From the NCBI RefSeq assembly GCF_019008365.1, contig NZ_JAHHUL010000007.1, forward strand, positions 112,362 through 144,361: a DNA stretch of 32,000 nucleotides. Direction: 5' to 3'. Shown here piece by piece: positions 9,135 to 28,484 of the stretch. A model generated the notes under the pieces. It ran no database searches. It saw nothing but the letters and a program-made list of their open reading frames with translations, and was not told the DNA's origin. The position numbers and the translations under genes were made by a program. The stretch comes from Phosphitispora fastidiosa (lineage in GTDB: Bacteria; Bacillota; Thermincolia; Thermincolales; UBA2595). Positions within the stretch are counted from its first letter, which is position 1; each line of letters opens with the position of its first letter.

Positions 9135-10358
9135 TTGGCTCATGATGTGTTTATCAGCTACTCATCAAAAGATAAAAACATTGCAAATGCGGTATGTAAT
9201 TTTCTGGAATCCAAACGGGTTAGATGCTGGATTGCTCCGAGGGATATTCCTCCGGGGGTTGAATATGCAGAAGCCCTGGTCGACGCGATTGATAACTGCC
9301 GTATATTTCTCCTGATTGTAACCTCTAATTCTATTGAATCTTTACACGTCAGGAGAGAGGTTGACAGGGCCATAAACAAGGTCAGTCATATTCTTCCGTT
9401 CAGGGTCCAGGATGTTCCTTTATCCAAAACCCTGCAATATTACATAGGAAATTATCATTGGCTTGATGCCTTAACTCCTCCACTCGAGATACACTTGGAG
9501 AAACTGGCATCATTTCTTGAGAACATTGTTTCAGGCACTATTTCTGATTATTTGAAACCCCAAAGGGAAACTGCCACACATACCATAATAGACGATGACT
9601 CTTTATTCGAGAAAAACAAATTGGAAATAGAGAAACAGACTAAACTTGATAGATTGGCTTTTGGCCTGAGCCTGGATGACCAGGGCGAAGATACAGTTGA
9701 TTGGATACATCATTATGAATATATTAAGAGACTGGATATACTTGATATTGAAAATTCGCTCATGAATAGTTACAGGTGGTTAGTGATTCGTAATATGAGT
9801 GATACCCCTTCAAATTTTATAGTGCATAAAGAGTGCGGGGAAAATAAGATTCATTTTAGGGACATGCATGTTCGAGCCCATGAAAACACACATACCGGAT
9901 CTAAGCTACAGGTCAACAGTATAATAGAAAGGCAGCCTTCTTTTGTCCAGAACTTAAAAATAAACTTCTTAAAGCCTCTTTCTCCCAGTGAATCCATGAA
10001 GATATTTTATCGCTTGAGTTGGCCTGATGAGCCTAAGTCGTACAGTGGCAGCGAACATAGTCAAAGCATTTCGCTAACTCGTTATAAAAAGGGGGTTTCA
10101 TACCTGCAATTCGGGGTTCTGGAACGAAGGCCCATGATTGGCATTTATGGAGAGGAACTATCAAAAACGTATGAATTAACCAAGGTGCCTCAGGTACCGA
10201 CCTATTTTTCAGCAGATGACGATGAAGATTTGGTACCTTTGCATGGGAAAAGTCTGCAGGGGTTTTACTATTGTTTTGAAAATCCTAAATCCCTGGCATA
10301 CCGGGCACATTATCAGCTTTTATACGATAATGAAAAAGAAGACAATGAAGAATTTTAG
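9135..10358 (+). CDS. TIR-domain protein with ~270-aa C-terminal domain of unknown family
   Basis: TTG start 7 nt after GAAGGTG. The N-terminus HDVFISYSSKDKNIANAVCNFLESKRVRCWIAPRDIPPGVEY...IFLLIVTSNSIESLHVRREVDRAI is a typical TIR_2 pattern, including the candidate catalytic Glu. Confidence 0.85.
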   Translation: MAHDVFISYSSKDKNIANAVCNFLESKRVRCWIAPRDIPPGVEYAEALVDAIDNCRIFLLIVTSNSIESLHVRREVDRAINKVSHILPFRVQDVPLSKTLQYYIGNYHWLDALTPPLEIHLEKLASFLENIVSGTISDYLKPQRETATHTIIDDDSLFEKNKLEIEKQTKLDRLAFGLSLDDQGEDTVDWIHHYEYIKRLDILDIENSLMNSYRWLVIRNMSDTPSNFIVHKECGENKIHFRDMHVRAHENTHTGSKLQVNSIIERQPSFVQNLKINFLKPLSPSESMKIFYRLSWPDEPKSYSGSEHSQSISLTRYKKGVSYLQFGVLERRPMIGIYGEELSKTYELTKVPQVPTYFSADDDEDLVPLHGKSLQGFYYCFENPKSLAYRAHYQLLYDNEKEDNEEF

Positions 10359-10375
10359 TGTATAGGGGTGATAAA

Positions 10376-11161: not shown

Positions 11162-11478
11162 ATAAATATTGGGACACCAGCTTTTTTGGAGAGGATTCTG
11201 CTGAGGTGATAAAAGGAGACAGAAAAAATGGCATATAAGCCAGAGGTTTGATGGGGGTTGGCCCTTTGGTCCCAGGAGGAATGATAAGACAAAAGAGCAC
11301 CCTTATCTGGTGCTTTATAAGGAACTGCCAGACTTACTTAATAAAAATTTACCTATCAATCTATCACTCCAGAACACTGGGGAAGCAATTCAACCCAGTC
11401 CTATAACCAGCCTCACAATGATTGAAGTCAGTAGATTTTATTCTTCTGTAAACATTTAATAAAGAAAAGGGGCCTGTT

Positions 11479-13272
11479 ATGAAGTTTACTGCTCCAGTCA
11501 GGGCTAGAAAACGAAGTCCTGCTGTTCAATTGTTCAGGGATTATGAATGGCTTATAATAGTCCTGCTCTTTTTCTTCTTTTTAGCCCTGGGGTGTATCGG
11601 TTATGCGAAAAATTACGCTGCCCAGGGAAAACCTCTATATGCTCCCTCCATCCTCTATCAATCATTACAGTTGTTTTTCTCAAACTTTAATGCCGGAAAC
11701 GGACCAATACCCATTGAATTGGAACTGGGCAGGTTTTTAGCGCCCCTGCTGTTCTTATATACTGCCGGCAAAGCCTTGGCGGTGATTCTACATAAACAGT
11801 TTTCTCTGATCTTTTTGAGACTGTTCTACAAAGAACATGTTATTATTTGCGGTTTAGGAACAAAAGGATTGTATCTGACGGCTGATTTTTGCCGGAATGG
11901 TTACCGGGTTGTTGTTATTGAGCTTGACAAGGAAAATGACATGATAGACCAGTGCAGGGAGCATGGGGCAATAGTCTTGACGGGGAATGCCGCGGATTCA
12001 GAGATGCTGTACAAAGCCAAGGCGACAAAGGCCCGCTATGTTGTTGCAACCTGCGGGCATGATGGGGTTAATGCTGAAATAGCGGTAAACATCCGGCAAA
12101 TGATTCAAAAACGCAGAGGGAAAACCCTGACATGTTATGTACATATCAGTGATGTGCAATTATGTAATATACTAAAAGAACGTGAATTAATGGGAGGAAA
12201 AGACGACTCTTTTTTACTGGAGTTCTTTAATATTTATAACAGTGGAGCCCGTATCCTGGCAAACACCTTTTTTAATTTTAATCAGGGTTGTTTGGACATT
12301 CGCAGCAATAACGCCGGTAAGAGTTCCCCATCCGGTATTGCAATAGCAGGGTTTGACAGTCTGGGTGAATGCCTCATATTATATGCGGTCAAAAGCTGGA
12401 GAAAAGTCTTTAATTTATATGGGGAAAAACTCAGGTTTACAGTGGTTGATGAAAATGCTCAAGCCAAAATCAATGATTTCATTTTGAGATATCCCCTGAC
12501 AGAAGAGTACTGTGAAATTCAGTCCTGCGAAGCCGATTGCGAACAGGGTGATTTTAACATTATCTTTATTCAAAAGAGCGATGAATCGGCGGGTTTAAAG
12601 ACAGCTTTATCCCTGCTCAATAAAAACCGGAAAACCCAGGTCGCATTGTGCACGATGAATACGGGAGGAGTTCCGGAGCTTCTTCGGGGAGAACACTCAA
12701 GTGACAGTTTACTGAGTGATAATGACAAATATCAAAGACTGCATGCCTTTGGGTTGTTGGATATGACGTGCCGGGTTGAGGCACTGCTTAGCGGTACTCA
12801 TGAAACCCTTGCTATAGCAATGCACAATTTGTATGTAGAACAAAATAAAAATGATGCAAAGAAAAAGGGTACCCTGGTCCATTGGGTTCAACTGGATGAA
12901 AGTCACAAGGAACAAAGCAGGCGTGAAGCTGGTTTTATTGGGGAGTTGCTGAAGGAGGTTTCATGTGAACTTATACTCCTGGCGGAGCTGAAAGAAGAAC
13001 AGTTTCAGTTTACTCCGGAAGAAGCGGAAAAAATGGCTGAACTTGAACATGACCGGTGGTACAAGCACCGTGTAAATGAAGGATGGAAGTATGGCGAGGT
13101 GCGAGATGATGCACGTAAGATAAACAATATGCTTTTGCCTTGGGCAGACCTGCCATATGAGGGCAAAAAATATAACATTGATATGGTGAATAAATTGCCT
13201 GAACTGATTGAAGAAGTTGGTTTCCGCATTTATCGAGTCAAGGGCGGAAGCCAAGCCCAAGCTGATTATTGA
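11479..13272 (+). CDS. Membrane protein: N-terminal TM region + Rossmann (TrkA-N/RCK-like) domain + C-terminal tandem RyR domains
   Basis: TM helices WLIIVLLFFFFLALGCIGY and FLAPLLFLYTAGKALAVIL. Rossmann motif HVIICGLGTKGLYLTADFCRNGYRVVVIE. C-terminal EHDRWYKHRVNEGWKYGEVRDDARKINNMLLPWADLPYEGKKYNIDMV matches the RyR domain pattern, preceded by a second degenerate copy (LAIAMHNLYVEQ...WVQLDESHKEQSR). Confidence 0.8.
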   Translation: MKFTAPVRARKRSPAVQLFRDYEWLIIVLLFFFFLALGCIGYAKNYAAQGKPLYAPSILYQSLQLFFSNFNAGNGPIPIELELGRFLAPLLFLYTAGKALAVILHKQFSLIFLRLFYKEHVIICGLGTKGLYLTADFCRNGYRVVVIELDKENDMIDQCREHGAIVLTGNAADSEMLYKAKATKARYVVATCGHDGVNAEIAVNIRQMIQKRRGKTLTCYVHISDVQLCNILKERELMGGKDDSFLLEFFNIYNSGARILANTFFNFNQGCLDIRSNNAGKSSPSGIAIAGFDSLGECLILYAVKSWRKVFNLYGEKLRFTVVDENAQAKINDFILRYPLTEEYCEIQSCEADCEQGDFNIIFIQKSDESAGLKTALSLLNKNRKTQVALCTMNTGGVPELLRGEHSSDSLLSDNDKYQRLHAFGLLDMTCRVEALLSGTHETLAIAMHNLYVEQNKNDAKKKGTLVHWVQLDESHKEQSRREAGFIGELLKEVSCELILLAELKEEQFQFTPEEAEKMAELEHDRWYKHRVNEGWKYGEVRDDARKINNMLLPWADLPYEGKKYNIDMVNKLPELIEEVGFRIYRVKGGSQAQADY

Positions 13273-13307
13273 GGTATACGGTAGAAATATAAAAACCGGG
13301 AGGTCTT

Positions 13308-15110
13308 ATGAACAATACAAACTGTGGTTCACACCCTCCCCGGGCGAAACTTGCTATAAGGGTAGGGGTAACGGGTCACCGCCCGGGAGGCCTTGCGAGA
13401 GCTGATTTGAAGATTCTTAAGGAAAAAATCAGACATGTCCTTCAGGAAATCAAAGTAAAGGCAGAGGAAATATCCCGTGAAACAAACAGCCTTTACCATG
13501 GCCTTCAACCTGTTTTACGGATTATATCGCCTCTTGCTGAGGGCAGTGACAGGATTGTGGCACATGAAGCGATTGACTTGGGCTACCAACTTCAGTGTCC
13601 ACTTCCCTATGAACGTAATGAGTATAAAAAGGACTTTTCTACAGGGGATTCCTGTGTGGAGTTCGATTCTTTACTGGAACAGGCTACTTCTGTGTTTGAA
13701 ATGGACGGAAGCCGCTTAGCAGAAGACAGCCCTTATTTATCAGTAGGAAGACTGGTACTTGAACAGTCAGATATCTTGGTGACTGTGTGGGACGGGTTCC
13801 AGCCCCGGGGCAGCGGAGGTACAGGCCAAATTGTCATGGAAGCCGTTGAACATATGATTCCCGTGATATGGATTAATTCCCGGCAGCCTCATGATATCAC
13901 TATCCTAGGTATGGCTGCTGATGATATAAAAGGATGGGTCGAATATCTCAGGAAACAGATGACATATCTCTTTCTTTTGCCGGTCTCGGAGGGTGATATA
14001 AAGGCAGATAAACTTACAATTAACCTTTCTGATTATTATCTCTCAGAATATCACAGAGAAACCAGGCATAGTTACAGAGGGGTAGCATATAAATTGTTCC
14101 GAAAATTGTTTGGAACCAATTTTTCTGCTTGTGAACAGGAAAAAGAAACGAAACAACAAACCCGGGCAATTACTCTGCCTGATAACATAAATAAAAGCAT
14201 CGATAGTGTCCTGAATTGCCATTTTAAATGGGCAGATGACCTGGCAAACTACTATGCTGCTTTATACAGAAACTCTTTTATTGCAAATTACCTGCTGGGC
14301 GGGTTGGCTGTTTTTTTCGCATTGTTTTCTTATGCTTTGGGATGGGTTGATACATACAGCAGGTACTACCATTACCAATGGGTGCCAACGGTTATTGAAC
14401 TGGTAATCATTTTATATATTATTGTCATTACGGTGTACGGAAACAAATCCAGGTGGCATGGAAAATGGATTGACTACCGGCTGTTGGCGGAACTTCTCAG
14501 GCATATGAAATTCCTTGCACCATTGGGCAGGGTAAATAATTCCTTCAGGATACCTGCCCATCAGATGCATAACGATATCAGAAATTCATGGGTAAACTGG
14601 CAGTTTAGGGCACTGGTCAGAGAACTCGGTTTGCTCAGTGTAAAATGTGACGGTAATTATCTTGAATCATATAGGGAATATTTGGCCAAAAATGAAATTG
14701 AAAACCAGATAGGTTTTCACGTGTTAAACGCCGGGCATTACCGGAGGATCACACACCGGCTGCACCTGCTGGGGCTGTTCCTGTTTGGCGGGACACTGGT
14801 TGCCTGTTTCCTGCATATTTTTTACCACGGTTATTATAATGCCTGGCTGACTCTGCTTTCGGCGGTACTTCCAGCTTTAGGCGCGGGATTTGCAGGGATC
14901 CTGTTTCAGGGCGAATTCCACCGGTTGGAACAGCGCTCTGCTGCGATGGCAAAAAGGCTTCAGGAACTGAAGAGCAGCCTGGATGAAATGAAAGATTTTT
15001 CCTATGCAGACCTTAGCCGGATTGCAAAGGTAACGGCTGAGGTGATGATAACCGAGGTCCTCGATTGGCGGATTATGTTCCAGGCGAGGCCGCTGCAGCT
15101 GCCGAGCTGA
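13308..15110 (+). CDS. SLOG (LOG/YpsA-like nucleotide-binding) domain fused to a C-terminal SLATT-type multi-TM domain
   Basis: N-terminal RVGVTGHRP...ISPLAEGSDRIVA...VWDG...GSGGTGQIV fits the SLOG/YpsA-like pattern. About four C-terminal TM helices (FIANYLLGGLAVFFALFSYAL, VIELVIILYIIVITVYG, LLGLFLFGGTLVACFLHIF, LLSAVLPALGAGFAGILF) fit the SLATT/DUF4231-like pattern. RBS CGGGAGG. Confidence 0.75.
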   Translation: MNNTNCGSHPPRAKLAIRVGVTGHRPGGLARADLKILKEKIRHVLQEIKVKAEEISRETNSLYHGLQPVLRIISPLAEGSDRIVAHEAIDLGYQLQCPLPYERNEYKKDFSTGDSCVEFDSLLEQATSVFEMDGSRLAEDSPYLSVGRLVLEQSDILVTVWDGFQPRGSGGTGQIVMEAVEHMIPVIWINSRQPHDITILGMAADDIKGWVEYLRKQMTYLFLLPVSEGDIKADKLTINLSDYYLSEYHRETRHSYRGVAYKLFRKLFGTNFSACEQEKETKQQTRAITLPDNINKSIDSVLNCHFKWADDLANYYAALYRNSFIANYLLGGLAVFFALFSYALGWVDTYSRYYHYQWVPTVIELVIILYIIVITVYGNKSRWHGKWIDYRLLAELLRHMKFLAPLGRVNNSFRIPAHQMHNDIRNSWVNWQFRALVRELGLLSVKCDGNYLESYREYLAKNEIENQIGFHVLNAGHYRRITHRLHLLGLFLFGGTLVACFLHIFYHGYYNAWLTLLSAVLPALGAGFAGILFQGEFHRLEQRSAAMAKRLQELKSSLDEMKDFSYADLSRIAKVTAEVMITEVLDWRIMFQARPLQLPS

Positions 15111-15169
15111 GAGTTCATAGACAATAACATGGTAGGATATACTAATACCTTTTATTGGGGGGTTGTTTT

Positions 15170-18049
15170 TTGAATGTATTCCTAAGTTATGGTCATGATG
15201 CATATGTTGAGTTAGCTAAGCGTATTAAAACTGATTTAGAAGCACAGGGGTATAAGGTTTGGTTCGACGAAGACAGGATAAACACAACTCACGATTGGGA
15301 AATCTCTATTGAAAAAGGGGTTATTACTTCTGATTGGATAGTAGTCTTAATGACTCCTCATTCCATGAGACGGCCTGACGGAGTGTGCTTAGATGAGCTT
15401 AGTTATGCCCGTTTCCTGGGCAAACAAATTGCCCCAATTATGGTTAGAATTGTACCACCACCTCTGTCTATAGCGCGGATTCAGTGGTTGGATATGCAAA
15501 ACTGTGTGTCTGATGAAACTGGAAAGATTAACGAAGAGCTTTACCAGGACAAGCTTCGCACCCTTTTGAAAACGCTAAATGGCGAATTTGCTCTTGGTTT
15601 TGAAGGGGAACAAGCCAGGTTGCGAGATATCTTAAGGCCCTTAGATAATGAAGCGGATATTGACCGTCATATAAAAGATTTCTATGGACGCCAGTGGATG
15701 TTTGATGCTTTCAAAAAATGGGTAACCGGAGATTTTTCGTCAAGAATTTTTTGGGTTAAAGGAAAAGCCGGCGTAGGGAAGACGGCTTTTGTTGCAGCAC
15801 TTTGCCATAGGGAACCGGTTGTAGTAGCGGTTCATTTTTGTAAGTTCAATGATAATGAGCGAGCAGATTCAAAGAAAGCAATCAGTTCAATATGTTATCA
15901 GCTTGCAATGCAATTACCTGAATACCAAGCAGCGTTGATTGATTTGCCAGAATTAAACATGCTAAGAGAAAAAAATACTAAGAATCTTTTCAATTACCTT
16001 TTGGTTGAGCCATTACGTTCCATTACTAATCCCGGCAAAAGAATGGTTATTGTTATAGATGCTCTTGATGAAGCTTCATGGGGTGGTAAAAACGAATTGG
16101 TTGATGTTTTAACTCAAGAATTTGATAGTATTCCAGAGTGGCTTGGAATTGTGGTAAGCTCCAGGCCTGAACCCGAAATGCTTCGAAAATTATCTAAGTT
16201 TAAACCATATGAATTAGACAATATGGATTTGAGAAATATGGATGATATTAGAGGATATTTTTCGGCCAAACTCTCAAATTATTCTTCAGAGGGACATAAA
16301 GAGGCTGTTGTTCAGAAACTTGTAACTAAAAGTGAGGGTATATTTTTATATGCCCAAGAGGTAATAAAGGAAATTGAGATCAAAAGACTTTCATTGGATA
16401 ATGTTGATGATTTTCCTACGGGACTTACTGGTATCTATCTTAATTACTTTGAACGCCAATTTCAGGATTATAAGTTTTATCAAGAATTAATCCGGCCATT
16501 ATTTGAACTTATTTCTGTAAACTTTGAACCCTTAGCTGTAAATGTTGCTGAAACAATTTTAGGCTGGGATGAATATGACCGGGACGATATATTAGAAAAA
16601 ATAAGCACAATTTTTCCGCTTCGGCAGCTTTGTATTGAGCCTATTCATAAAAGTGTGGTTGATTGGATGACTGATTCGGGGAAAAGTGGCCGTTATCGGA
16701 TAAGCGCCAAAAAGGGCCATCAACGGTTTAGCGATGGTTTATGGAAATTATACAAGAAAGACTTGAATCAACTTCCGGCTTATGGAGTTAAGTATATGGT
16801 ATCTCACTTACTGTTTATCGAAAAGTGGGATGAGTCCATTGAGGCTCTAAACGATTATAGTTTACAGGAAAAGCGTATCAAAATTGTTAGCTTGGATAGT
16901 GCAATGAGAGCGTATTTCATGGAACTTAATCAGGTTTTTATGTTAAGGCCGGAGTTAGTAACTATAGTATTAACTGGAGAGACTTTTCAGTGCCTAATGG
17001 CATTACATAGAAGGTATCTTTACGACTCAGGTTTATTTCTTGATCTTCAGAAAATGGGATTTGATAAAATTCTGGCAGAAAAAAAAGAATTTTGGTTACC
17101 TAAAGCTGAAGTTGCTTGTGCTTTTTATTTATATTTAACGGAAAATTTTATAGAAACTATAGAAAGAGCAAAAAAAATACAGAACTTCGGTATTGTTGAT
17201 AATACAAATACATTGCTGCAATCTGAGTTATACAACCTAATAGGTCTTAATTATAGAAAACTGGCTTGTTTTCAAGAAGCCCGTGATTCATTTGAAAAAT
17301 CAATACAACTCGCTGAATCATCAGGAGATTTATATGAAGCCTCCGCAGGATATATGAATATTGCCAAACTAAATTACCATATGCTCGATTTTGAAGACGC
17401 CTATATGAATAATAATAAAGGGATAGCTCTGTTAACAGAACTGCTGGAATCTAAACTGAAGAGCAATGCTGGTGAGTGTACCAGTTTAAAGCTATTTCTG
17501 GCCGAATATCACCGCCTAGCTGCTGAGACATATCAATGGAACGAGAAAATTAAGGAAGCACTAATCCACCTAGAAATTGCCGGCAATATTTATAAGGAAA
17601 CTAAAGTACGCGACCGGTATTATGTTAGGTGGCTGTATACTTCTGCTTTTCAGCAAATATTGTCAGGTGATTATCATTCGATTAGAAACGATTTTCATTA
17701 TATTACAGGCCTAATCAAGAACGAGTATGACCGGTCGAGAGCGTTCTTTACTGCAAGTTTTGCTAAACTGCTTGAATTTGGTCATACTGGCAACGGAAGG
17801 GTGCTGAGTGATGCAGGCCTGTATGCCAAGGAAGCAATAAAACGGGCAAAGTCAATTAACGCAGTGATTGAAGAACAGGAGGCACAGGTACTGTACAACA
17901 TAATTGCTAAAAAATCCGGAGAAAAGGCGAATTATGAACTCCCTCATGGGAGTAAACAATATATAAAGGATTGGGTTATTTACGTAAATAATTATATCTC
18001 CAAATTTCTAAGGAGGGTGTTAAAACATGAAGATAATATTTTTGGGTAG
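15170..18049 (+). CDS. TIR-STAND (NACHT-like P-loop NTPase)-TPR/helical-repeat protein
   Basis: TIR pattern VFLSYGHD...KVWFDEDRI...VVLMTP...CLDELSYA. Walker A GKAGVGKTAF and Walker B MVIVIDALDEA, plus VVSSRPEP, and a helical-repeat C-terminus. The TTG start at 15170 is preferred (7 nt after GGGGGG, and aligned with the paralogue's start); the track start is 15155. Confidence 0.85.
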   Translation: MNVFLSYGHDAYVELAKRIKTDLEAQGYKVWFDEDRINTTHDWEISIEKGVITSDWIVVLMTPHSMRRPDGVCLDELSYARFLGKQIAPIMVRIVPPPLSIARIQWLDMQNCVSDETGKINEELYQDKLRTLLKTLNGEFALGFEGEQARLRDILRPLDNEADIDRHIKDFYGRQWMFDAFKKWVTGDFSSRIFWVKGKAGVGKTAFVAALCHREPVVVAVHFCKFNDNERADSKKAISSICYQLAMQLPEYQAALIDLPELNMLREKNTKNLFNYLLVEPLRSITNPGKRMVIVIDALDEASWGGKNELVDVLTQEFDSIPEWLGIVVSSRPEPEMLRKLSKFKPYELDNMDLRNMDDIRGYFSAKLSNYSSEGHKEAVVQKLVTKSEGIFLYAQEVIKEIEIKRLSLDNVDDFPTGLTGIYLNYFERQFQDYKFYQELIRPLFELISVNFEPLAVNVAETILGWDEYDRDDILEKISTIFPLRQLCIEPIHKSVVDWMTDSGKSGRYRISAKKGHQRFSDGLWKLYKKDLNQLPAYGVKYMVSHLLFIEKWDESIEALNDYSLQEKRIKIVSLDSAMRAYFMELNQVFMLRPELVTIVLTGETFQCLMALHRRYLYDSGLFLDLQKMGFDKILAEKKEFWLPKAEVACAFYLYLTENFIETIERAKKIQNFGIVDNTNTLLQSELYNLIGLNYRKLACFQEARDSFEKSIQLAESSGDLYEASAGYMNIAKLNYHMLDFEDAYMNNNKGIALLTELLESKLKSNAGECTSLKLFLAEYHRLAAETYQWNEKIKEALIHLEIAGNIYKETKVRDRYYVRWLYTSAFQQILSGDYHSIRNDFHYITGLIKNEYDRSRAFFTASFAKLLEFGHTGNGRVLSDAGLYAKEAIKRAKSINAVIEEQEAQVLYNIIAKKSGEKANYELPHGSKQYIKDWVIYVNNYISKFLRRVLKHEDNIFG

Positions 18050-18776: not shown

Positions 18777-18807
18777 TTATTAGTTTTTTAAATACGGGTG
18801 ATGAGGG

Positions 18808-19590: not shown

Positions 19591-19642
19591 AAGAAATACG
19601 TTTTCTCACAGAAGGAATTAGAAACCTAAGGGGGTCACCAAT

Positions 19643-20641: not shown

Positions 20642-20649
20642 ATTTTAGG

Positions 20650-22450
20650 GCGTAAAGCTCTTTTTTTTTGCCTTGTTTTAAGTGTTCGTTTTTTTGTACA
20701 GTAAACCTGGTACACTGCCATTAGACCAGAAAAAATATTAACGAGGAGCATTCCTGTAATAAACAAAAATGAACTTTGAAAAAAGAAGTACCTCACGATA
20801 GAATTGAATTGTGCGATTTGGCCAAAGCACAACAAATCAAAACTACGGGAGGTACCTAAAATGAAGTATACCCAGAATGAAAAGATTCTGCAAGTCACAG
20901 AAAGCACTTTGATTATCGGCGTGGACATAGCCAGCGAAATACACTATGCAAGAGTCTTTGACCAGAGAGGCATCGAATTAGCTAAACTGATTAAATTCAG
21001 TAACGATGCCGAGGGGTTTAAAGAATTTGTCTCATGGGCCGAGGAAATCAAAGACAAGAACAACAAGCATAAAGTAATGGTCGGCATGGAGCCAACAGGT
21101 CATTATTGGTTTAACATAGCTCCTTATCTTAAGGATCACGGAATTAAAATAGTGTTGGTGAATCCGTTTCATGTAAAGCGGAGCAAGGAACTGGATGATA
21201 ACAATCCAACCAAAAATGATCGTAAGGACCCAAAGACCATAGCGATGCTCGTAAAGGATGGTCGATACATGGAGCCGTATATACCGGAAGGAATATACAG
21301 CGAATTAAGGACCGCCATGGAAACACGCTGGCAGATAGTGAAGCAGCTAAACGTAATAAGAAACCGCGTAAAGCGGTGGATTAGTATATACTTCCCTGAA
21401 TTCAACAGAGTATTTGGTGACTGGGAAGGGAAAGCCTCATTGATAATATTAAAGGAGTTCTCAACACCTGCCAAGCTAATTGAAAAGGGCATAGATGGCA
21501 TTATAGCCAGGTGGAAGCAAGATAAACTGAGAGCAGTAGGAAGAAAGCGAGCAAGTGCGCTGATTGAGGTTGCCAGGACCTCTGTCGGAGTGAGAGAAGG
21601 GCTGGTTGCTGCAGAGAATGACCTTGCAATACTGATTGAAGACTATGAAATGAGAATGCAGCAGTACGAGCGGACCCTGCTTATGATTGAGCAACTTGCG
21701 TATCAAATACCAGGAATGCTCGAAATCCTTAAGATAAAAGGTATTGGCCTTGTTACAGCAGCAGGCTTCATAGCAGAAGTTGGTGATATCAGTAGGTTTG
21801 AGCATCCGAAGCAGATACAGAAACTGGCTGGTCTAAGCTTAAAAGAAAATAGCTCTGGTAAACACAAAGGCAAGACAACGATCAGTAAACGGGGCCGAAG
21901 GCGGTTAAGGGCTTTACTATTTCAAGGAATCATGCCGGTGGCAGCTAAAAACCCAGAGTTTCGTGAACTGCACAGCCACTATACCACCAGGAAAAAGAAC
22001 CCGCTAAAGAAAAAGCAGTCTTTAATACTGTTGAGCTGCAAGTTAATCCGAATATTTTTTGCATTGCTAACAAAAGGCGTAGCGTATGACCCACAAAAGA
22101 TGATTAATGATATCAAGAGACCCTTATTACAGGAAGCTGCTTAAGTAAAAAAGTCTCATGCAATCGCAGGTTGAACATTGACAAAACGAGCCGGGATTAG
22201 TCAGGTTGAATCAATTCCATAAGGGCACAAGACCCAGTCGAAGGAGCACAACTGACATCCACCTCATGGGCAGGCAGAACGAAGGAATTTAGGGCACAGA
22301 CCCTGTGAGACATGGGAGGGTTGCCGCCGGAGAACAAGTGGATACCATCGGCCGAAATAAGCGAAAAACTCATAGGGCTTATTAAGGTCAACCTTGTTCA
22401 TCCAGATATATGCAAAAATAGGCATATTGCCCAGATGGCTCGTTTTGAAA
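20650..22450 (+). mobile_element. IS110-family insertion sequence (boundaries approximate)
   Basis: Contains the DEDD-type transposase gene with long non-coding flanks. IS110 elements lack classical terminal IRs, so the ends cannot be fixed from one copy. Confidence 0.6.
20861..22144 (+). CDS. IS110-family (DEDD) transposase/recombinase
   Basis: ATG at 20861 follows GGGAGG. The IGVDIASEIHY, VGMEPTGHYW, NPTKNDRKDPKTIA and IKGIGLVTAAGFIAEVGDISRF motifs are typical of the Transposase_9 and Transposase_20 domains. Confidence 0.9.
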   Translation: MKYTQNEKILQVTESTLIIGVDIASEIHYARVFDQRGIELAKLIKFSNDAEGFKEFVSWAEEIKDKNNKHKVMVGMEPTGHYWFNIAPYLKDHGIKIVLVNPFHVKRSKELDDNNPTKNDRKDPKTIAMLVKDGRYMEPYIPEGIYSELRTAMETRWQIVKQLNVIRNRVKRWISIYFPEFNRVFGDWEGKASLIILKEFSTPAKLIEKGIDGIIARWKQDKLRAVGRKRASALIEVARTSVGVREGLVAAENDLAILIEDYEMRMQQYERTLLMIEQLAYQIPGMLEILKIKGIGLVTAAGFIAEVGDISRFEHPKQIQKLAGLSLKENSSGKHKGKTTISKRGRRRLRALLFQGIMPVAAKNPEFRELHSHYTTRKKNPLKKKQSLILLSCKLIRIFFALLTKGVAYDPQKMINDIKRPLLQEAA

Positions 22451-22519
22451 AATGTGAAAATCTAAGATTTCAAGAGCAAATTAAAGAAAATGAAAGATTA
22501 TAGAGGGAGGAATGCGAAA

Positions 22520-23233
22520 ATGAAAAATGGAACCTTGAAGGGTAAAAGAATTGCCATCCTGGTATTGATTGCTTTTATGACTGCCCTGTTTGCCACTCCG
22601 GCTTATGCATGGCACGGTTCAGGTGAATATGCAACTGAACAGGACGTGCATCTGACTGATACTTACTGGTGGGCGAGAGACATGGGATTTGCCGTTAATG
22701 AAGCAAAAACAATTGCCAGGGCTTGTGACGGTGTGGATTTTAGTTGGAAATATTTTGACAAGGACTGGCACCTGGATCGGCGGGAAGACAGCGGTGATAC
22801 TATTGATACCAGGGAGAGACATGCCATCCAGGAAATGAACAAAGCCAAATATTATATCAGCAAAGTGCCGGGATCCGGTTATTGGAAAGCCCGGTATTAC
22901 AGGAATGAAGCATGGAAACACCTGGGCAGAGGCCTTCATGCGCTACAGGACATATATGGCCATATGGATGCCGGGGTTGGCAAACCCATCGATGATGACA
23001 GGTATCCTTTCAGCCACGGAATGGCCGGTGTTATGGTGGACGCGACAGATGTGGACGGCACAGTCAGGGAAATGGCTGTGGAAAACCTCTATGATGATGT
23101 ATTATGGGATTATACCGAGGAAGAGGGCTGGCATCGTCACCATACCAAAGAGGAAGGTACCAGGTGGACAGAGACGAAAAAGGCTTCAAAAAAATATATG
23201 TATGAATTCCTGTCATATGGATACGGGTCTTAA
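22520..23233 (+). CDS. Secreted zinc-dependent phospholipase C-like protein
   Basis: Signal peptide KRIAILVLIAFMTALFATPAYA|WHG leaves an N-terminal Trp after cleavage. LHALQDIYGHMDA resembles the PLC zinc motif (B. cereus LHYLGDVNQPMHA, as recalled). ATG at 22520 follows GGGAGG. Confidence 0.5.
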   Translation: MKNGTLKGKRIAILVLIAFMTALFATPAYAWHGSGEYATEQDVHLTDTYWWARDMGFAVNEAKTIARACDGVDFSWKYFDKDWHLDRREDSGDTIDTRERHAIQEMNKAKYYISKVPGSGYWKARYYRNEAWKHLGRGLHALQDIYGHMDAGVGKPIDDDRYPFSHGMAGVMVDATDVDGTVREMAVENLYDDVLWDYTEEEGWHRHHTKEEGTRWTETKKASKKYMYEFLSYGYGS

Positions 23234-23269: not shown

Positions 23270-25438
23270 ATGTCTGAACTGGAATACCTGATAGATAGGT
23301 TAATAAAGTTGGCCAGAAAAAACGCTTCAGATACCGGTCTGTCGGCAGTGGAGTCCGGCCTGCCGGTCTTCACCGAGAGAACAGTAACCTACCTCTTGAG
23401 GGAAGCCTTCAGAAAGGGTGACCTTGGGAAGTCGTTCCGGATAGCCCGGGCCCAGAAGAATTTACGCCTAATGGCCCGGGTGGGCCGGATTTGGCTGAAA
23501 ATGGGTCAGAGGGATTTCGGCCTGAAAGCAGCTGTAGAATCCGGGGATGACCTGTTATTAAGGGATATTATCTCAGAACAGTGTAAAACCGGTGATGTGT
23601 TTGGGGCTTTATCCCTGGCCGGGAGTATAAAAGACCGGCGGATCAGGAATTATGCATGTGGGCAGATCGCCCAAAAGTATTTGGATCTGGGCCTTATAAA
23701 AGATGCCATTAACCTTATCCAGGGCATAGAAAACCCTGCAGACCGTTTTGATGCGGAGAAAGAAATGGCAGGGTGGCTTTTTGATGCAGGCTATTCAGTT
23801 GCTGCCCTGAGAATGGCCTCAGGTATTGAGAATGAAGGCTGCCGGGTAATGGCCATGGGAGGAATCCAGGCGAAAGTACAGGCAAAAATACAGGCAACAG
23901 TCCGGGCAACAGGTCAAAAATGCCTTGGTTACTGCAGGAAAACCCTTAAAATACTTGACACAGTCAACCAAAGCGGCTATAAGGGTCCTTGCATAAGGGA
24001 AACAGCTCTAAGCCTGCTTTTAATGGGATATCCCGGCAAGGGGCTGGCATTAATAAACAGGATTGAAGATCCGTTCGAAAAAACTTACGCCCTGGCCGAA
24101 GCATCGATAAAGCTTTTGCAGATGGGATTTGATAGAACCGGGGCATTACGCGCTTTGAAGTGGTGCCAGGACTGTATGGATAAAATGCAGGGCCTTAATT
24201 ATAATGTTTATATTACTGTTGAAGAGCCGGCCCGTTATTTTTCGATGTCTGATGATGAACATGCCAGGGTAATCTCCCATGAGCATCATTTCATGCTGGA
24301 TTTATTTGCTGATGGGGAAAAAATGATTGCGACCCTGTTAAAGCTTTCCTTCATGCTTCATGAATTGGGTTATACCGGCACAGCGTATCAGGTACTGCAA
24401 AAAGCGGTGCAGGTTAATGAAAACAGCCGTACTTACCTGGAAGACCACTCGGGCAATAAAATCCATGACTGTGACAACCTGGATAGGCTTATTTCCGAAA
24501 TGTTAAGGCAGGGATACGGCGAAGAGGCCTTCAAATTAGCAGCAGAGCTGGATACGGTACGACTGGTAAAAACATCATCAATACTATACCAGACGGGATA
24601 TGCGGATTTTGCGGCAGACCTCCTGACTGCCTGTGTCCGGGATGACAATGAACCTGGTGATATGCTCAAGTTATCCCATGAGTTATACAACCAGGGCCAG
24701 CCTAATGCGGCGGTAAAATGCCTGGACAGGTGCCTTGATAAATGTATCAATGAATATATTAAGTCTTCCGGTAATTCAGGCGGACTGGAAGAACTGTATG
24801 AAACCATGTTAGAAATATCATGGGAGTACAGCAGGCAGGGCAACCGGGGCAAGGCGCTTGAACTGCTGGATAAGTGTGTGAAGTTCGGGGTGTCAGGGGA
24901 CAATGCAAAGGCTGGGACATATTGGGCGATGTGCGGCTGCAGGGACTTCCGCTTAAGGGTTTTCCATGAGTGCCTGAAAAGGGAGTATTATGACGGGGCC
25001 TTTAAAATTTTAAGGCATTGTATCGAAGGACTGAGTGGAAGCCGTGAATACACCCAAAATAGTGAGCATATCACTGAACTGTCCCTTTTGCTGGAGAAGT
25101 CCTGCAATGAGACTGAAGCGGGCATAGCCAGTAATAAGGCTGGTTTGGATATGGTTCTTGAGGTTTTGGAATTATTGGAGGAAACAGCTGTTCCCCCGGA
25201 AACCAAACAATCCGTATACATAGACTTTATCGGCCGTATTCACCTGTACAAAAAGCGCCTGCCGGAGATTGCTGTCCGGCTGGCGCCTATGGTGTCAAAG
25301 CACAGGGAAACAGTGTTGTTATTATTGTACGCCTGTGCTGTATATGTGAGGTTTTATTCGGGATACGGTCCTTCTGAAGTGAACAGAATTTTGACTAAGG
25401 TCAGCAAAGTGATTGATGTCCATGAAATGTTTGTTTAG
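23270..25438 (+). CDS. Large alpha-helical repeat protein of unknown function (722 aa)
   Basis: Long clean ORF with RBS GGGAGAGAGG. Shows recurring ~35-aa helical-repeat-like periodicity and a short QAKVQAKIQATVRAT low-complexity tract. Confidence 0.7.
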   Translation: MSELEYLIDRLIKLARKNASDTGLSAVESGLPVFTERTVTYLLREAFRKGDLGKSFRIARAQKNLRLMARVGRIWLKMGQRDFGLKAAVESGDDLLLRDIISEQCKTGDVFGALSLAGSIKDRRIRNYACGQIAQKYLDLGLIKDAINLIQGIENPADRFDAEKEMAGWLFDAGYSVAALRMASGIENEGCRVMAMGGIQAKVQAKIQATVRATGQKCLGYCRKTLKILDTVNQSGYKGPCIRETALSLLLMGYPGKGLALINRIEDPFEKTYALAEASIKLLQMGFDRTGALRALKWCQDCMDKMQGLNYNVYITVEEPARYFSMSDDEHARVISHEHHFMLDLFADGEKMIATLLKLSFMLHELGYTGTAYQVLQKAVQVNENSRTYLEDHSGNKIHDCDNLDRLISEMLRQGYGEEAFKLAAELDTVRLVKTSSILYQTGYADFAADLLTACVRDDNEPGDMLKLSHELYNQGQPNAAVKCLDRCLDKCINEYIKSSGNSGGLEELYETMLEISWEYSRQGNRGKALELLDKCVKFGVSGDNAKAGTYWAMCGCRDFRLRVFHECLKREYYDGAFKILRHCIEGLSGSREYTQNSEHITELSLLLEKSCNETEAGIASNKAGLDMVLEVLELLEETAVPPETKQSVYIDFIGRIHLYKKRLPEIAVRLAPMVSKHRETVLLLLYACAVYVRFYSGYGPSEVNRILTKVSKVIDVHEMFV

Positions 25439-25451
25439 CCTTTATACCCAG

Positions 25452-28046
25452 TTAGTCCTGGTCCAGTCTGTAAATCTCCATTCCGGCGTCTTTGAGGATA
25501 TTCTGGTAATTAGTAACGAAGTCCACATCATATTCCCTTATTTCTACTGGAAGGTCGGACCAGGCCACGAGATGGGGGGATATTTTTTTGTCTACATCCT
25601 TTTGCTCTCCATACCGCCAGCCGCTGTTAAGCCTTTCTATGACCCATCGTCCATGTTCCATTATAGCCATCTCTTCAATTTGTGACGGTGTCAGTTCCAC
25701 AAGGCAGGGTTCTGTGGTAGTGTTTCTTATACCATACCCGCAGCTTCTTAGGATTTCTGCCATGTATTTTATGTGATGCCTGTTGGATAACTTGAGGTCC
25801 TCGTTGAGCTTGTCCCATGTTTTACGGGATGCTTCAGTGGGCTGGGTGGTATTAAGGTAGTGGGCATGTGCTGCCTGTGCTGCCTTTTCGACCTGTTCCT
25901 CAGCAAGGAAGGGCTGTGTTTTCTGCATAATAAATGCTCTGATTATCATGGGGTCAGGGGGAAGGCTGAATAGATAATTGCTGCCACCAAAGGCGGCATC
26001 TGTGGTAATTTGTGAAGCAGTGCTGCCAGCGGAACCGATAACAGCGACCCTTGCGCCCAGGGCCAGGGCCAGCTTGTATTCCAGTGCGGAGATGGTGCCT
26101 CCGCCAATACCCAGTACAGAAACTTCTGATGGTTTAACCCCTTGGGAAACCAAGTCCACCCAGTACTGAACCGGCTCTCCGGGTCCGAAACCGTGGTCAG
26201 GGGAGCAGAAGATACTGTCATAATTGTCGTCCCGTGTTGCGTCAAATGGAATTGTTTTTGGAAGGTATCCAAGCAGGCAAACAGCAATTCTGCCGTCCTT
26301 TCTCAGCTCATTTACCAGCTTGCCAACCATGCCAGGGACGCCGGAAGTGATGCCTCCCGATATTATTGTGCCCCGGAACCCTTTCAATACCTGCAGTAAA
26401 TCGTTACAGAGGATTGGACAATCTTCATCCAGACCGCTGCTGGTACTACCGGCTATGATCAGTACCGGCCGGTCAAACCCGGTGGTTTTGGCAGCGAGGC
26501 TCTTCAACACTTCCAAGGACCGGGGACTCTTATCTTCAAAGAGGCAGGCCTTCCCCACGTGCAGCACATTGGTTATCCAGGCAAGTTCAGCCGTGGTTTT
26601 ATATCCAAGTTCAGTATTTTTAAGGAACGCCAGTTCATTGTCAAAGGCCTCCTTAAAAGAGTCTTCAAAGTCGTCTTTAAAGTTACTGATATCTTTTTCC
26701 ACTTTCAAGGAGTTGCAGTAATGGATGGCGTTGATATAAGATTCCAGACTGTTTGTATATACACCAAGAATATAAAAGAAACGGCCCATAGTCAGGTATG
26801 CCCTGAGGATCTCAATACCGGCGCTGATATGGGCTTTGCAGGTAGTGATGGCCTCGTTTATGCTGTTTTTTAGCAGGGGGAAATAATCCTCTTCTTCAAT
26901 AAACTGCTCAATACAGTCTGCCAGGAAGTATGGGTTTTGCGGGTCTTTTTCGAAAGCCTGCAGGTTAAGCTGTCTGGCTGTTTTTTTATTTTGAAGCAGT
27001 TTTTGAGTCCAGGCCAGGGCTGACAGCGCCCTGGCCTGAAGAAGGTATTCTTCTTTGGTAATGGGTGCCGGACACATGCTATATTTATCTGGCAGAGCAA
27101 CATAGCCGATATATTGTTGACCTGTGTGGAATTCTTTGCTGTCAGGCTTTTTTTTGTGCTTCATGCATAAAGCATAACCCAGTTCCAGAAAAACCTGGGC
27201 CTTAAGATAGGGATTATCCATTTCGTCAACAGCCAAGCTTTGCAGGACCTCTACGATTGTATCCCATTTTTTGATAACCTCCGCGATTTTGGCTATCCGT
27301 AAGGCCAGGCCCGGTTTATTCTTTTTAGACTGCTCGTTATTAAATACGGTTTTCAGTGTTTCTATCTCGTTAGCAATATCAACCAGGTTAGAATATGTAT
27401 TGTAATTTAGTTGATAGGAATCAATAGACTGCACGAATTCACCAAACAAACTGTCGGCGTTTTCCATTAAGGCGGCCAACCTGGCACTGTCACGCCTGAG
27501 CTTGCCGGGGACACTGAAGTTACTCTTATAGATGCGGTCATGGGTTATATCTGACCATGCATGCTGAAGTATGGTACGGATCTGGATTTCGGCTTTCCTA
27601 GGCCCGATGGATTCAGGTATATCAATACCCAGTACCGGCTTTTGAGGCAGGGATATGACATAGTGGACGGAACGGTAGCCGAACTGGTCCTTCTGCAGGC
27701 GGGAACTGACATCCAGGCTGTTTTCCCAGTCAATAATAAAATTTGCTTCTATAAACTTGCTGATGGCATCAACCTGGGCCAGGGTATGGGTAATTACCCG
27801 GGCCCCGCATAAATCGGTGAACTGATAAGCCGGTTGACTATACTTGGACCGCTTTCTGACTGCCTTCTCAGCAAAGCTCGACAGATTCTTTGCCCTGGCC
27901 TGAACTATGGCATTGGGAGCATATGAATCACAGGCCTTCTCCAGAATCTGCCTTAAGATGCCGGCATATTCTTTATAAAAGCTATATTCTTCAGAGTACT
28001 TATTAATCTGCTCCAGGTGCCAGTTTTTATCAATTGTTGATGACAA
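25452..28046 (-). CDS. RelA/SpoT-type nucleotidyl (pyrophospho)transferase fused to a helical linker, a SLOG (LOG-like) domain and C-terminal tandem RyR domains
   Basis: TTG start 6 nt after GGGAGGTG. Synthetase motifs: LCGARVITH, FGYRSVHYV, EIQIRTILQHAWSDITHDRIYK. SLOG motifs: LIIAGSTSSG...ISGGITSGVPGMVG...GIGGGTISALEYKLALALGARV. RyR motif: MEHGRWVIERLNSGWRYGEQKDVDKKISPHLVAWSDLPVEIREYDVDFV. Confidence 0.85.
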   Translation of the reverse strand: MSSTIDKNWHLEQINKYSEEYSFYKEYAGILRQILEKACDSYAPNAIVQARAKNLSSFAEKAVRKRSKYSQPAYQFTDLCGARVITHTLAQVDAISKFIEANFIIDWENSLDVSSRLQKDQFGYRSVHYVISLPQKPVLGIDIPESIGPRKAEIQIRTILQHAWSDITHDRIYKSNFSVPGKLRRDSARLAALMENADSLFGEFVQSIDSYQLNYNTYSNLVDIANEIETLKTVFNNEQSKKNKPGLALRIAKIAEVIKKWDTIVEVLQSLAVDEMDNPYLKAQVFLELGYALCMKHKKKPDSKEFHTGQQYIGYVALPDKYSMCPAPITKEEYLLQARALSALAWTQKLLQNKKTARQLNLQAFEKDPQNPYFLADCIEQFIEEEDYFPLLKNSINEAITTCKAHISAGIEILRAYLTMGRFFYILGVYTNSLESYINAIHYCNSLKVEKDISNFKDDFEDSFKEAFDNELAFLKNTELGYKTTAELAWITNVLHVGKACLFEDKSPRSLEVLKSLAAKTTGFDRPVLIIAGSTSSGLDEDCPILCNDLLQVLKGFRGTIISGGITSGVPGMVGKLVNELRKDGRIAVCLLGYLPKTIPFDATRDDNYDSIFCSPDHGFGPGEPVQYWVDLVSQGVKPSEVSVLGIGGGTISALEYKLALALGARVAVIGSAGSTASQITTDAAFGGSNYLFSLPPDPMIIRAFIMQKTQPFLAEEQVEKAAQAAHAHYLNTTQPTEASRKTWDKLNEDLKLSNRHHIKYMAEILRSCGYGIRNTTTEPCLVELTPSQIEEMAIMEHGRWVIERLNSGWRYGEQKDVDKKISPHLVAWSDLPVEIREYDVDFVTNYQNILKDAGMEIYRLDQD

Positions 28047-28049
28047 TGT

Positions 28050-28484
28050 TTACACCTCCCCTTTGATGCTGAGTAAATAATCTAAAGCCTTCCTGTATTT
28101 CTCATGCCGTTTATAGCTTTTAGAGGTTGGATCTTTAATCCTGTTCAAATCAAGGTTGTCTGTCAGATCAGCGATCTTAACAGCAGTGGCCAGGGGGTTA
28201 GCGGATACTTTTAATAAGTACTGATCATATGGTTCGTCTTGATGGCGGGTAAGGCAGGACAGCGCCTCTATAATGTTGTCAGGTACTCCTTCTTCCCTGA
28301 GCCTTTCGGGTGAGCACCCTCCGTCTTCGATGGTATCGTGAAGCACTGCGGTAATCATTTCCTCTTCATTTGAAGTATTCAGCATTACCCTGAGACAATG
28401 CAGCATATATGGTTTTCCTGCCTTGTCCTGCTGGCCCTCATGTGCCCGGGCAGCAAGAATGACGGCTTTTTCCAGATTAAACAG
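28050..28484 (-). CDS. Small HD-domain alarmone hydrolase-like protein (SAH-like); start uncertain, possibly CTG at 28484
   Basis: The track ORF starts at ATG 28406, but the frame stays open upstream to a TGA at 28491-28493. That extension encodes NLEKAVILAARAHEGQQDKAGKPY, the conserved first His segment of RelA/SpoT-type HD hydrolases. LHDTIEDGG lies downstream. RBS AAGGGAG lies 9 nt before CTG 28484, and there is no ATG/GTG/TTG in between. Confidence 0.7.
   Translation of the reverse strand: MFNLEKAVILAARAHEGQQDKAGKPYMLHCLRVMLNTSNEEEMITAVLHDTIEDGGCSPERLREEGVPDNIIEALSCLTRHQDEPYDQYLLKVSANPLATAVKIADLTDNLDLNRIKDPTSKSYKRHEKYRKALDYLLSIKGEV

Follow-up and report, generated by a model that had tools for sequence, protein, structure and literature searches.

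Tandem RyR modules at the C-termini of a predicted RelA/SpoT–SLOG alarmone synthetase and a predicted MthK-like pore in a TIR-bearing region of Phosphitispora fastidiosa

We analysed a stretch of 32,000 nucleotides of Phosphitispora fastidiosa DNA (contig NZ_JAHHUL010000007.1, positions 112,362 to 144,361 of the forward strand; hereafter the window), in which two large proteins, designated A and B, both end in a ryanodine receptor (RyR)-type module. An earlier note on this DNA had quoted C-terminal strings of the two proteins with their coordinates, had described them as the same ~170-residue tandem RyR module placed on otherwise unrelated proteins, and had proposed on this basis that the two gene clusters are functionally related. 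Both strings are present there in the window translation. The two genes and their modules are arranged as follows, with transmembrane abbreviated as TM.

25452..28046, minus strand: protein A, 864 residues; RelA/SpoT synthetase domain (27519-27896), helical/TPR-like middle part (26487-27359), LSDAT-type SLOG domain (25992-26471) and C-terminal RyR module
25455..25901, minus strand: tandem RyR module of A; degenerate repeat 1 at 25677-25901, repeat 2 with the Pfam RyR match at 25455-25676
11479..13272, plus strand: protein B, 597 residues; two TM helices with an LQLF loop (11530-11790), TrkA_N/RCK domain (11839-12111), middle domain and C-terminal RyR module
12802..13239, plus strand: tandem RyR module of B; repeat 1 at 12802-13023, repeat 2 at 13024-13239

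Comparison of the last ~190 residues of A and B by BLASTP returned 48 identities over 147 positions (33% identity, 54% positives, E 4e-26), and the Smith-Waterman score was 218, compared to 30.5 +/- 5.1 in 2000 shuffles (z = 36.5). The likeness is real and is neither chance nor low complexity. Outside the module A and B are unrelated (best BLASTP E 0.15), as the earlier note had held. The shared part spans ~147 residues (719-860 in A and 442-587 in B) rather than ~170, and both copies exceed the gathering score of the Pfam RyR family PF02026 (27.4 bits), with 40.3 bits for A and 58.9 bits for B.

In both proteins the Pfam match is confined to the second repeat, i.e. the last ~70 residues, and in B an extra sub-threshold RyR stretch brings the number of stretches to two. 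The first repeat is degenerate, its GWxYG loop being deleted. We regard it as an RyR repeat because GW(T/K)YG is kept in the first half of the homologues P0008 and P0009, because a 10-sequence module profile matches RyR2 (E 2.7e-42) with its N-terminal half aligned to RyR2 repeat 4, because an AlphaFold2 (AF2) model of the A module (predicted local distance difference test, pLDDT, 92.4; predicted template-modelling score, pTM, 0.83) superposes over its full length on human RyR3 Repeat12, and because a half-versus-half BLAST of the module is weakly positive (E about 0.02). The best Foldseek match of the model was 9l9b, a crystal structure of the two-repeat Repeat12 domain of human RyR3 in complex with dantrolene and ADP (query-normalised template-modelling score, TMq, 0.72; E 1.9e-7; ~186 columns); the model also superposes on the Bacteroides/human chimera 6uhi, and the best structural matches of the module are RyR3 Repeat12 structures holding ADP or AMP-PCP, nucleotide binding being a property of this domain family. 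Judged by profile and model, the module is a compact tandem RyR domain of the Repeat12 type with a degenerate first repeat. The proposal of a real shared domain of ligand-binding type, consistent with the Pfam RyR match and the predicted Repeat12 fold, is thereby upheld, and so is the tandem of two repeats, although the module is shorter than claimed and only its second repeat is seen by Pfam.

Among proteins of the two architectures, hereafter A-type and B-type, mean module identity is 41% for A-A, 36% for B-B and 33% for A-B comparisons, and the two sets of modules form separate old lineages. To call them the same module goes too far in view of the 33% identity and the separate ancestry. Recent exchange, duplication or co-evolution of the two modules was considered and rejected, as pairs from the same locus (34.5% identity, n = 13) are no closer than pairs taken across genomes (33.3%, n = 182; p = 0.27).

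The RelA/SpoT domain of A (PF04607; 58.6 bits, Pfam cut-off 27) is nearest, among solved structures, to the small alarmone synthetases RelQ/YjbM (E 1.5e-9) and RelP and keeps the EIQIRT motif in the alignment to RelQ, and the ribosome-binding domains of long RelA/SpoT homologue (RSH) enzymes are absent from A according to Pfam. The SLOG domain corresponds to Pfam LSDAT_prok ('SLOG in TRPM, prokaryote') with 22 bits, below the cut-off of 25.4. Directly upstream of A lies the following gene; PDB 7smg is the (p)ppApp hydrolase Aph1.

28050..28484, minus strand: Aph1-like HD-domain (p)ppApp hydrolase; a 118-residue open reading frame (ORF) matches PDB 7smg with E 1.8e-23

The N-terminal 26 conserved residues of this hydrolase, among them the signature residue D24, are encoded without an ATG, GTG or TTG start; the reading frame continues to a CTG at 28484, 9 nt after a strong AAGGGAG, and the Pfam HD_4 cut-off is passed by the extended form only. 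The CTG is the probable start, the gene having either a non-canonical start or a mutated start codon. At the Aph1 specificity residues D24/R96/D116/R119/K133/Y134 (PMC10083569) the hydrolase carries D/K/D/R/K/Y, five of the six being identical and the R-to-K exchange conservative. The product of A is, on this sequence evidence, likely to be the toxic alarmone (p)ppApp.

Two further genes are convergent with A, encoding a 247-residue protein with a signal or TM segment (22490-23233, plus strand) and a 722-residue TPR-like protein (23270-25438, plus strand). Neither gave a significant family match, and zero homologues of either were present in the RyR loci fetched from other genomes (L numbers below).

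The N-terminal profile of B aligns to residues 23-201 of MthK, spanning the pore TM helices and the RCK domain, and the MthK-like layout of a two-helix (2TM) pore domain followed by RCK/TrkA_N is present in B. The two helices flank a conserved LQLF loop, with the B-type consensus LQLFxxxxGxxxGP; a TVGYG-type selectivity filter is missing, the inter-TM loop being LQLFFSNFNAGNG. We therefore describe B as a predicted MthK-like 2TM–RCK pore lacking the K+ filter. Pfam and PDB searches with its middle domain returned no match.

The module belongs to a large family. When 1.84 billion cluster representatives were searched exhaustively with the module profile, 14,564 proteins passed E <= 1e-3 and 2,528 of them passed E <= 1e-30; a word-indexed homology search had given 10 hits only. 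Among the best 147 proteins, many of which carry two modules, the partner domains were TrkA_N (65), DUF7701 (26), AAA-type ATPases (~15), RelA_SpoT (3) and LSDAT_prok (2), the architecture of B being the commonest and that of A rare; sigma-54 activators were seen as a further partner. Scanning GTDB species representatives with the module profile yielded 80 loci, of which 71 have the full RelA–helical–SLOG–RyR architecture, in hosts from Verrucomicrobiota, Planctomycetota, Acidobacteriota, Desulfobacterota, Chloroflexota and archaea. A third RyR-capped class (C-type; ~850-1020 residues), composed of a conserved N-domain, an AAA ATPase and the RyR module, co-occurs with A-type and B-type genes and is missing from the window; it was found at the following loci.

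C-type AAA–RyR genes: L011, L017, L023, L030, L036, L038, L048, L075, L079 and L083; also L093, L095, L098, L111, L113 and L122

Its N-domain gave no match in Pfam and PDB searches, and no other nucleotide-sensor domain was matched in the C-type proteins. As a separate observation, L135 and L136 contain a 980-residue TrkA–SLOG–RyR ORF that mixes A-type and B-type parts and lies directly upstream of a 1010-residue TIR gene.

In the window, B is embedded in a group of genes that includes two TIR proteins, designated T1 and T2, and a SLOG–SLATT protein (P600), and an insertion sequence (IS) separates this group from the A cluster.

9135..10358, plus strand: TIR protein T1, 407 residues; TIR_2 domain (Pfam 2.6e-21) and a C-terminal domain; 1.1 kb upstream of B on the same strand
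11228..11333, plus strand: remnant of a decayed single-repeat RyR-only gene (RyR hidden Markov model E 1.2e-7), between a methyltransferase gene and B
13308..15110, plus strand: SLOG–SLATT membrane protein P600, 600 residues; 36 nt downstream of B
15155..18049, plus strand: T2, a TIR–NACHT(NPHP3_N)–TPR STAND protein (Pfam); 1.9 kb downstream of B
20804..22144, plus strand: IS110-family transposase (Pfam DEDD_Tnp_IS110, Transposase_20), between the B cluster and the A cluster

T1 overlaps the gene of an S-adenosylmethionine-dependent methyltransferase and has weak ThsB matches in PADLOC; its C-terminal domain was without match in Pfam and PDB searches. The conserved TIR glutamate is kept in both T1 and T2, and B, a putative effector gene, thus has TIR genes bearing the catalytic Glu beside it. 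P600 was modelled with a pLDDT of 86.7, and its N-domain matches the SLOG folds of YpsA and DprA (Foldseek E 1.2e-4; target-normalised template-modelling score, TMt, 0.72). Four TM helices are located in its C-terminal part; P600 itself stays under the Pfam cut-offs with weak SLATT hits, and its homologues carry PF14015/PF18181 (DUF4231/SLATT_1). From these features P600 is an effector-type protein of SLOG–SLATT architecture. The family comprises at least 405 full-length relatives, mostly unnamed or annotated as 'DUF4231', and is a recurrent partner of B-type genes, a P600 homologue adjoining a B homologue in L001 and other loci. Other loci contain short P600 forms of ~200-390 residues without the SLOG domain. 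The decayed RyR-only remnant consists of 'MAYK' joined out of frame to 'QRFDGGWPFGPRRNDKTKEHPYLVLYKELPD'; intact single-repeat RyR-only genes of 94-99 residues are found in the similar loci L002, L011, L138 and L147 (94-95 residues in the last three), an architecture like that of the phage RyDEP and sponge proteins considered below.

The G+C content is 0.34-0.44 across positions 9000-22000, which hold the TIR/B/STAND block, versus 0.45-0.52 in the flanking housekeeping genes AFOR, QueC, QueD and FmdE, consistent with an acquired island. These surroundings bear on whether A and B have any role in conflict. TrkA_N/RCK and RelA/SpoT are housekeeping-type domains, and an archaeal SLOG–RyR protein (P0101) is encoded among housekeeping genes, with a NUDIX and a phosphodiesterase gene as neighbours; B might on these grounds be a regulated K+ or other cation channel and A an enzyme of the stringent response. 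We consider such ordinary physiology very improbable in view of the TIR, STAND and SLATT neighbours, the IS element and a WYL regulator, the low G+C between 9 and 22 kb, the missing TVGYG-type filter of B, the lack of long-RSH ribosome-binding domains in A, and the detoxifying hydrolase encoded directly upstream of the latter.

The association of these genes in other genomes was determined in two samples, for which we called the locus ORFs ourselves and annotated them by profiles seeded from the window domains, key classes being rechecked with Pfam. The A-type sample consists of 72 loci in other species with 10 kb neighbourhoods, and the independent B-type sample of 42 loci of at least 6 kb, retrieved from metagenomes with four B N-termini as queries (439 residues, no RyR sequence). 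As most fetched contigs come from metagenome-assembled genomes, near-duplicates are included (e.g. L015/L016, L108/L109 and L127/L128) and kinship is ignored, the counts are approximate.

A TIR gene lies within 10 kb in 30 of the 72 A-type loci, and all TIR ORFs near A-type genes (46/46) were confirmed as TIR_2 by Pfam, many being fused to TPR, WD40 or NB-ARC/NACHT. STAND NTPases without TIR_2 are present in 21 of the 72 loci; 26 of 35 such proteins start with DUF4062, a domain scoring a probability of 8.6% against the TIR profile in hhalign. A B-type 2TM–TrkA–RyR gene occurs in 12, a C-type gene in 10 and a P600 homologue in 8 of these loci. The commonest upstream neighbour of A-type genes is a NUDIX hydrolase of ~140 residues, which is encoded directly upstream in 20/72 loci, often overlapping the A-type gene (e.g. 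L015:7413-7832), and takes the place of the HD hydrolase of the window. Similar results were obtained from the B-type anchor, the 42 loci containing TIR genes in 22 cases, complete A-type genes in 9 and truncated ones in 3, P600 family members in 7 and STAND genes in 9. A-type and B-type genes are directly adjacent in L018, L026, L040, L072, L077 and L087, and certain gene orders recur: L103-L106 have B–TIR–A, and L104 and L107-L109 have A–NUDIX–B.

The proportion of TIR genes among the ORFs falls with distance from the anchor gene, from 9.0% within 2.5 kb to 1.0% at 7.5-10 kb around A-type genes, and from 12.2% to 0% over the same intervals around B-type genes. Precomputed annotation of individual homologues gives a similar picture: the A homologue P0153 stands in the order NUDIX–A–small RyR–ThsB_TIR–DUF4062-STAND, the A homologue P0028 is encoded immediately after a TIR_2 gene, the B homologue P0121 is placed between a DUF4062–STAND–TPR gene and a P600 homologue, and P0016 is near a TIR–Macro gene; on the 10-kb contig of P0149 TIR was not found. 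Tabulation of neighbours, which the earlier note had suggested as a check, thus places RyR-module proteins in strong association with TIR, SLOG and STAND genes; the outcome that the note had named as refuting, a lack of enrichment near such genes, clearly did not arise. Because the two types recur together, often adjacent, in other genomes, A-type and B-type genes are recurrent partners, more than chance neighbours.

These counts also decide how much weight can be given to the view that A and B are independent systems in a shared defence or mobile island, with RyR as a promiscuous C-terminal domain that receives separate inputs. The module family is very large, with many partner domains among its 14,564 cluster representatives; in the window A and B are 12 kb apart on opposite strands with IS110 between them; their modules, at 33% identity, show no same-genome co-variation; 83% of A-type loci lack a B-type gene, and TIR-free B-type loci exist (e.g. 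L086 and L130). However, reciprocal co-occurrence within 10 kb reaches 17-29% and includes overlapping or adjacent pairs on the same strand, whereas one copy of each per 5-Mb genome would co-occur by chance at ~0.4%, and each type tracks TIR genes with distance decay. We consider independence of the two systems unlikely.

A ligand for the module is suggested by recent work on phage proteins. A 2026 preprint that covers viral proteins only (PMC13232231) reports that the mycobacteriophage RyR-domain protein RyDEP cleaves 2'/3' cyclic ADP-ribose (2'/3'cADPR) and that other phage RyR homologues bind it at nanomolar affinity. RyDEP contacts the ligand through H75, W78, H100 and D117, with H75/D117 as catalytic dyad, and these residues are conserved across PF02026 including the animal Repeat12 (R12) domains; six of eight phage homologues with the conserved residues bound the signal without cleavage (PMC13232231). 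In our proteins, pocket residues were mapped by the offsets 0, +3, +25 and +42 and the family consensus, not by direct RyDEP alignment; the offsets fall on the conserved H, W, H and D of the consensus, and repeat 2 reads as follows.

Offset 0, H: A-type 77/77, B-type 14/15, C-type 10/10; H in window A and H in window B
Offset +3, W: A-type 74/77, B-type 13/15, C-type 10/10; W in window A and W in window B
Offset +25: A-type S in 49 and H in 18, B-type S in 6 and N in 4, C-type H in 9; S in window A and N in window B
Offset +42, D: A-type 77/77, B-type 12/15, C-type 10/10; D in window A and N in window B

Window A has an H at +27, and repeat 1 keeps an H, an aromatic residue and an N. On this mapping the pocket appears conserved in the family, yet A and B differ at contact positions. 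B naturally has the change that the RyDEP authors made as mutant D117N, which argues for B as a binder and not an enzyme. The phage DyoEdafos was not among the matches when phage genomes were searched by tblastn with the B repeat.

The same residues speak to the possibility that the RyR module is a built-in signal remover, either a RyDEP-like glycosidase or a sponge, and that sensing is left to SLOG in A and RCK in B. In favour of this, RyDEP itself acts as a glycosidase through its H75/D117 dyad, and there are sponges among the other family members; every A-type module keeps the H and D equivalents in repeat 2; SLOG is established as the 3'cADPR sensor in ThsA; and free-standing single-repeat RyR ORFs (94-99 residues) occur in the same host loci, one of them decayed in the window. 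This reading nevertheless appears quite unlikely, given the N at the D117 position of window B, the missing H100 equivalent in both window modules, the binding without cleavage by 6/8 phage homologues, and the C-type AAA–RyR proteins, in which no other nucleotide sensor was matched.

Taken together, we favour, with a probability of roughly one half (about 0.5), a model in which the segment between ~9.1 and 28.5 kb forms a TIR-centred signalling island similar to Thoeris that feeds several effector arms, with RyR as the host-side receptor or co-receptor for the TIR product. Upon infection, a TIR enzyme (T1, possibly also the TIR domain of T2) would convert NAD+ into an ADP-ribose-derived signal, which would bind the pseudo-dimeric pocket of the tandem RyR module; RyR might act alone or jointly with a second domain, SLOG in the case of A and RCK in the case of B. 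In A, the signal would activate the small-alarmone-synthetase-like RelA/SpoT domain, with or instead of the LSDAT-type SLOG domain, to make a toxic alarmone, probably (p)ppApp, the basal level of which would be cleared by the Aph1-like hydrolase (by NUDIX elsewhere). In B, it would gate the MthK-like non-selective pore and thereby collapse the membrane potential, and the neighbouring SLOG–SLATT protein may provide a third, membrane-breaching arm. The ligand and its direction of regulation, (p)ppApp synthesis, channel activity and a part in phage defence are inferred from features that were observed directly, i.e. the domain identities, the fold, the conservation of the pocket, and the recurrent association of A-type, B-type, SLOG–SLATT, NUDIX and TIR/STAND genes.

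Several observations weigh against the model of a TIR-centred island. Within the window, 12 kb separate A from B, which is encoded on the other strand; IS110, the WYL regulator and other genes lie between them, and A has no adjacent TIR gene, the nearest one ending 7.4 kb off, across IS110. The functional link between the two clusters that the earlier note had drawn is supported by the recurrence of A-type and B-type genes together elsewhere, but less so by the arrangement in the window itself. In other genomes, 42 of the 72 A-type loci are without TIR within 10 kb, and where at least 6 kb is available on both sides a TIR gene is present in 15/37 and a TIR or STAND gene in 22/37 loci. The similarity of the A and B modules does not co-vary within genomes, the H100 equivalent is missing in both window modules (S in A, N in B), and B carries N at the D117 position. 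Moreover, 3'cADPR is known to be sensed in ThsA by SLOG, a domain that A also contains, such that RyR may not be the sensor; the TIR domain of the STAND protein may be an NADase effector instead of a signal maker; and neither B nor the SLOG–SLATT protein belongs to a system listed in PADLOC 2023. One ligand common to A and B, as had been proposed, can be put forward only conditionally because of the 33% identity, the old lineages, the absent co-variation and the differing contact positions.

Alternatively, the module could sense the ATP/ADP energy state, or the (p)ppApp made by A, the second option placing A ahead of B in a cascade or feedback loop. RyR3 Repeat12 crystals hold ADP, AMP-PCP and ATP, A is predicted to make an adenine alarmone given its Aph1-like neighbour, and A and B co-occur. 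The neighbour common to both types is, however, TIR; B-type genes accompany TIR in the absence of A-type genes in L101, L110, L125, L127, L131, L138, L147 and L156, and A-type genes mostly occur without B-type ones. Because each type is found without the other, B does not generally depend on the product of A. We see only a slim chance for either form of ordinary nucleotide sensing.

Extended beyond the window, the TIR-centred model suggests, tentatively and with less confidence than for the island itself, that bacteria and archaea may have devoted the RyR Repeat12 fold to receiving TIR-made (c)ADPR-type signals on at least three effector classes, namely a (p)ppApp-making RelA/SpoT–SLOG protein, an MthK-like channel and an AAA ATPase.

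The closest known counterpart is Thoeris, in which a ThsB TIR protein is combined with a ligand-activated effector (e.g. the SIR2–SLOG protein ThsA; types I-XI). The likeness consists of TIR genes with a catalytic Glu beside sensor-domain effectors and of the presence of both membrane-targeting and metabolite-depleting effector classes, and there is precedent for a TIR operon in which two types of effector answer to one signal (10.64898/2025.12.03.692087). In contrast to Thoeris, the sensor here is RyR, the effectors are of RelA/SpoT and MthK-like type, and the genes are spread across an island instead of forming a tight operon. We regard the system as a putative variant of TIR-signalling defence and do not assign it to an established Thoeris type; its defining phenotype and signal are predictions, and A lacks an adjacent TIR gene in the window. 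Neither the text nor the supplements of the survey of TIR systems of types I-XI contain the RyR sensor domain or effectors of the RelA/SpoT and MthK-like channel types (10.64898/2025.12.03.692087), two conflict-system surveys of the Aravind group do not mention RyR, and the combination of 'RyR domain' and 'TrkA' was not found in the literature searched; PADLOC 2023 offers only the candidate family PDC-S33 for the RelA part of A, and weak ThsB hits for the TIR proteins. Within the literature searched, there is no description of RyR-capped effectors that are encoded by the host and linked to TIR genes.

Other systems share single parts. With phage RyDEP and the viral RyR sponges (PMC13232231) the proteins have in common the PF02026 family, the H/W/D pocket residues and the link to TIR-made cADPR isomers, but RyDEP is a free-standing, homodimerising single repeat that serves the phage, whereas here tandem repeats are placed at the C-terminus of host multidomain proteins, with the H100 equivalent missing and N at the D117 position of B. 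Animal R12 is the best structural match over both repeats (TMq ~0.7; profile E 2.7e-42) and likewise attaches a nucleotide- and dantrolene-binding pocket to a cation channel; it differs in sequence (18-20% identity), in that the bacterial repeat 1 lacks the GWxYG loop, and in the pore, which is 2TM–RCK in B and six-TM in RyR. As in the Tas1/Apk toxins with Aph1 and in toxSAS with SAH antitoxins, a RelA/SpoT synthetase stands beside an Aph1-family HD hydrolase; the synthetase described here is, however, fused to TPR-like, SLOG and RyR parts, is neither a secreted polymorphic toxin nor half of a simple toxin-antitoxin pair, and is accompanied in other genomes by NUDIX in place of the hydrolase. 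B resembles MthK/TrkA-type RCK channels in its two TM helices and RCK (TrkA_N) domain, with the profile alignment to MthK residues 23-201, and departs from them by the missing TVGYG filter and the added middle domain and C-terminal RyR module. The TRPM2 channel combines two ligand modules, the LSDAT/SLOG region MHR1/2 and NUDT9-H, which bind ADP-ribose. A SLOG domain matching 'SLOG in TRPM, prokaryote' (below cut-off) in A, and NUDIX as the commonest upstream neighbour of A-type genes, would parallel this at the level of sequence, with the difference that the two modules are on separate proteins here.

So far, the only functional data on RyR domains outside animals come from phage proteins, which bind TIR signals or destroy them. 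If the proposed model is correct, host effectors that are capped by RyR and encoded next to TIR genes would supply the missing counterpart in the phage RyR arms race, phage RyDEP proteins might be captured copies of a host receptor domain, and TIR immunity would gain a receptor domain as well as two effectors, one that synthesises an alarmone and one that is a channel, in what would amount to a new, widespread multi-effector branch that connects TIR signalling to (p)ppApp toxicity. A protein uniting a channel with RyR would then be a prokaryotic antecedent of cADPR-modulated ryanodine receptors, offering a directly testable account of how the disputed connection of cADPR with the ryanodine receptor in animals arose in evolution, and the model bears more broadly on where the (c)ADPR-sensing modules of RyR and TRPM2 channels came from. 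With thousands of clusters in the family, many 'TrkA/RyR' and 'GTP pyrophosphokinase' annotations would change.

Two further genes lie between T2 and the IS110 element.

18808-19284, plus strand: inositol-monophosphatase-family ORF, 158 residues, aligned to positions 10-161 of a profile of 271; close to the WYL regulator and IS110
18027-18776, plus strand: MBL-fold hydrolase, overlapping the end of T2 by 23 nt

The former is probably a gene fragment, and the latter may be co-translated with T2 and could act on nucleotides.

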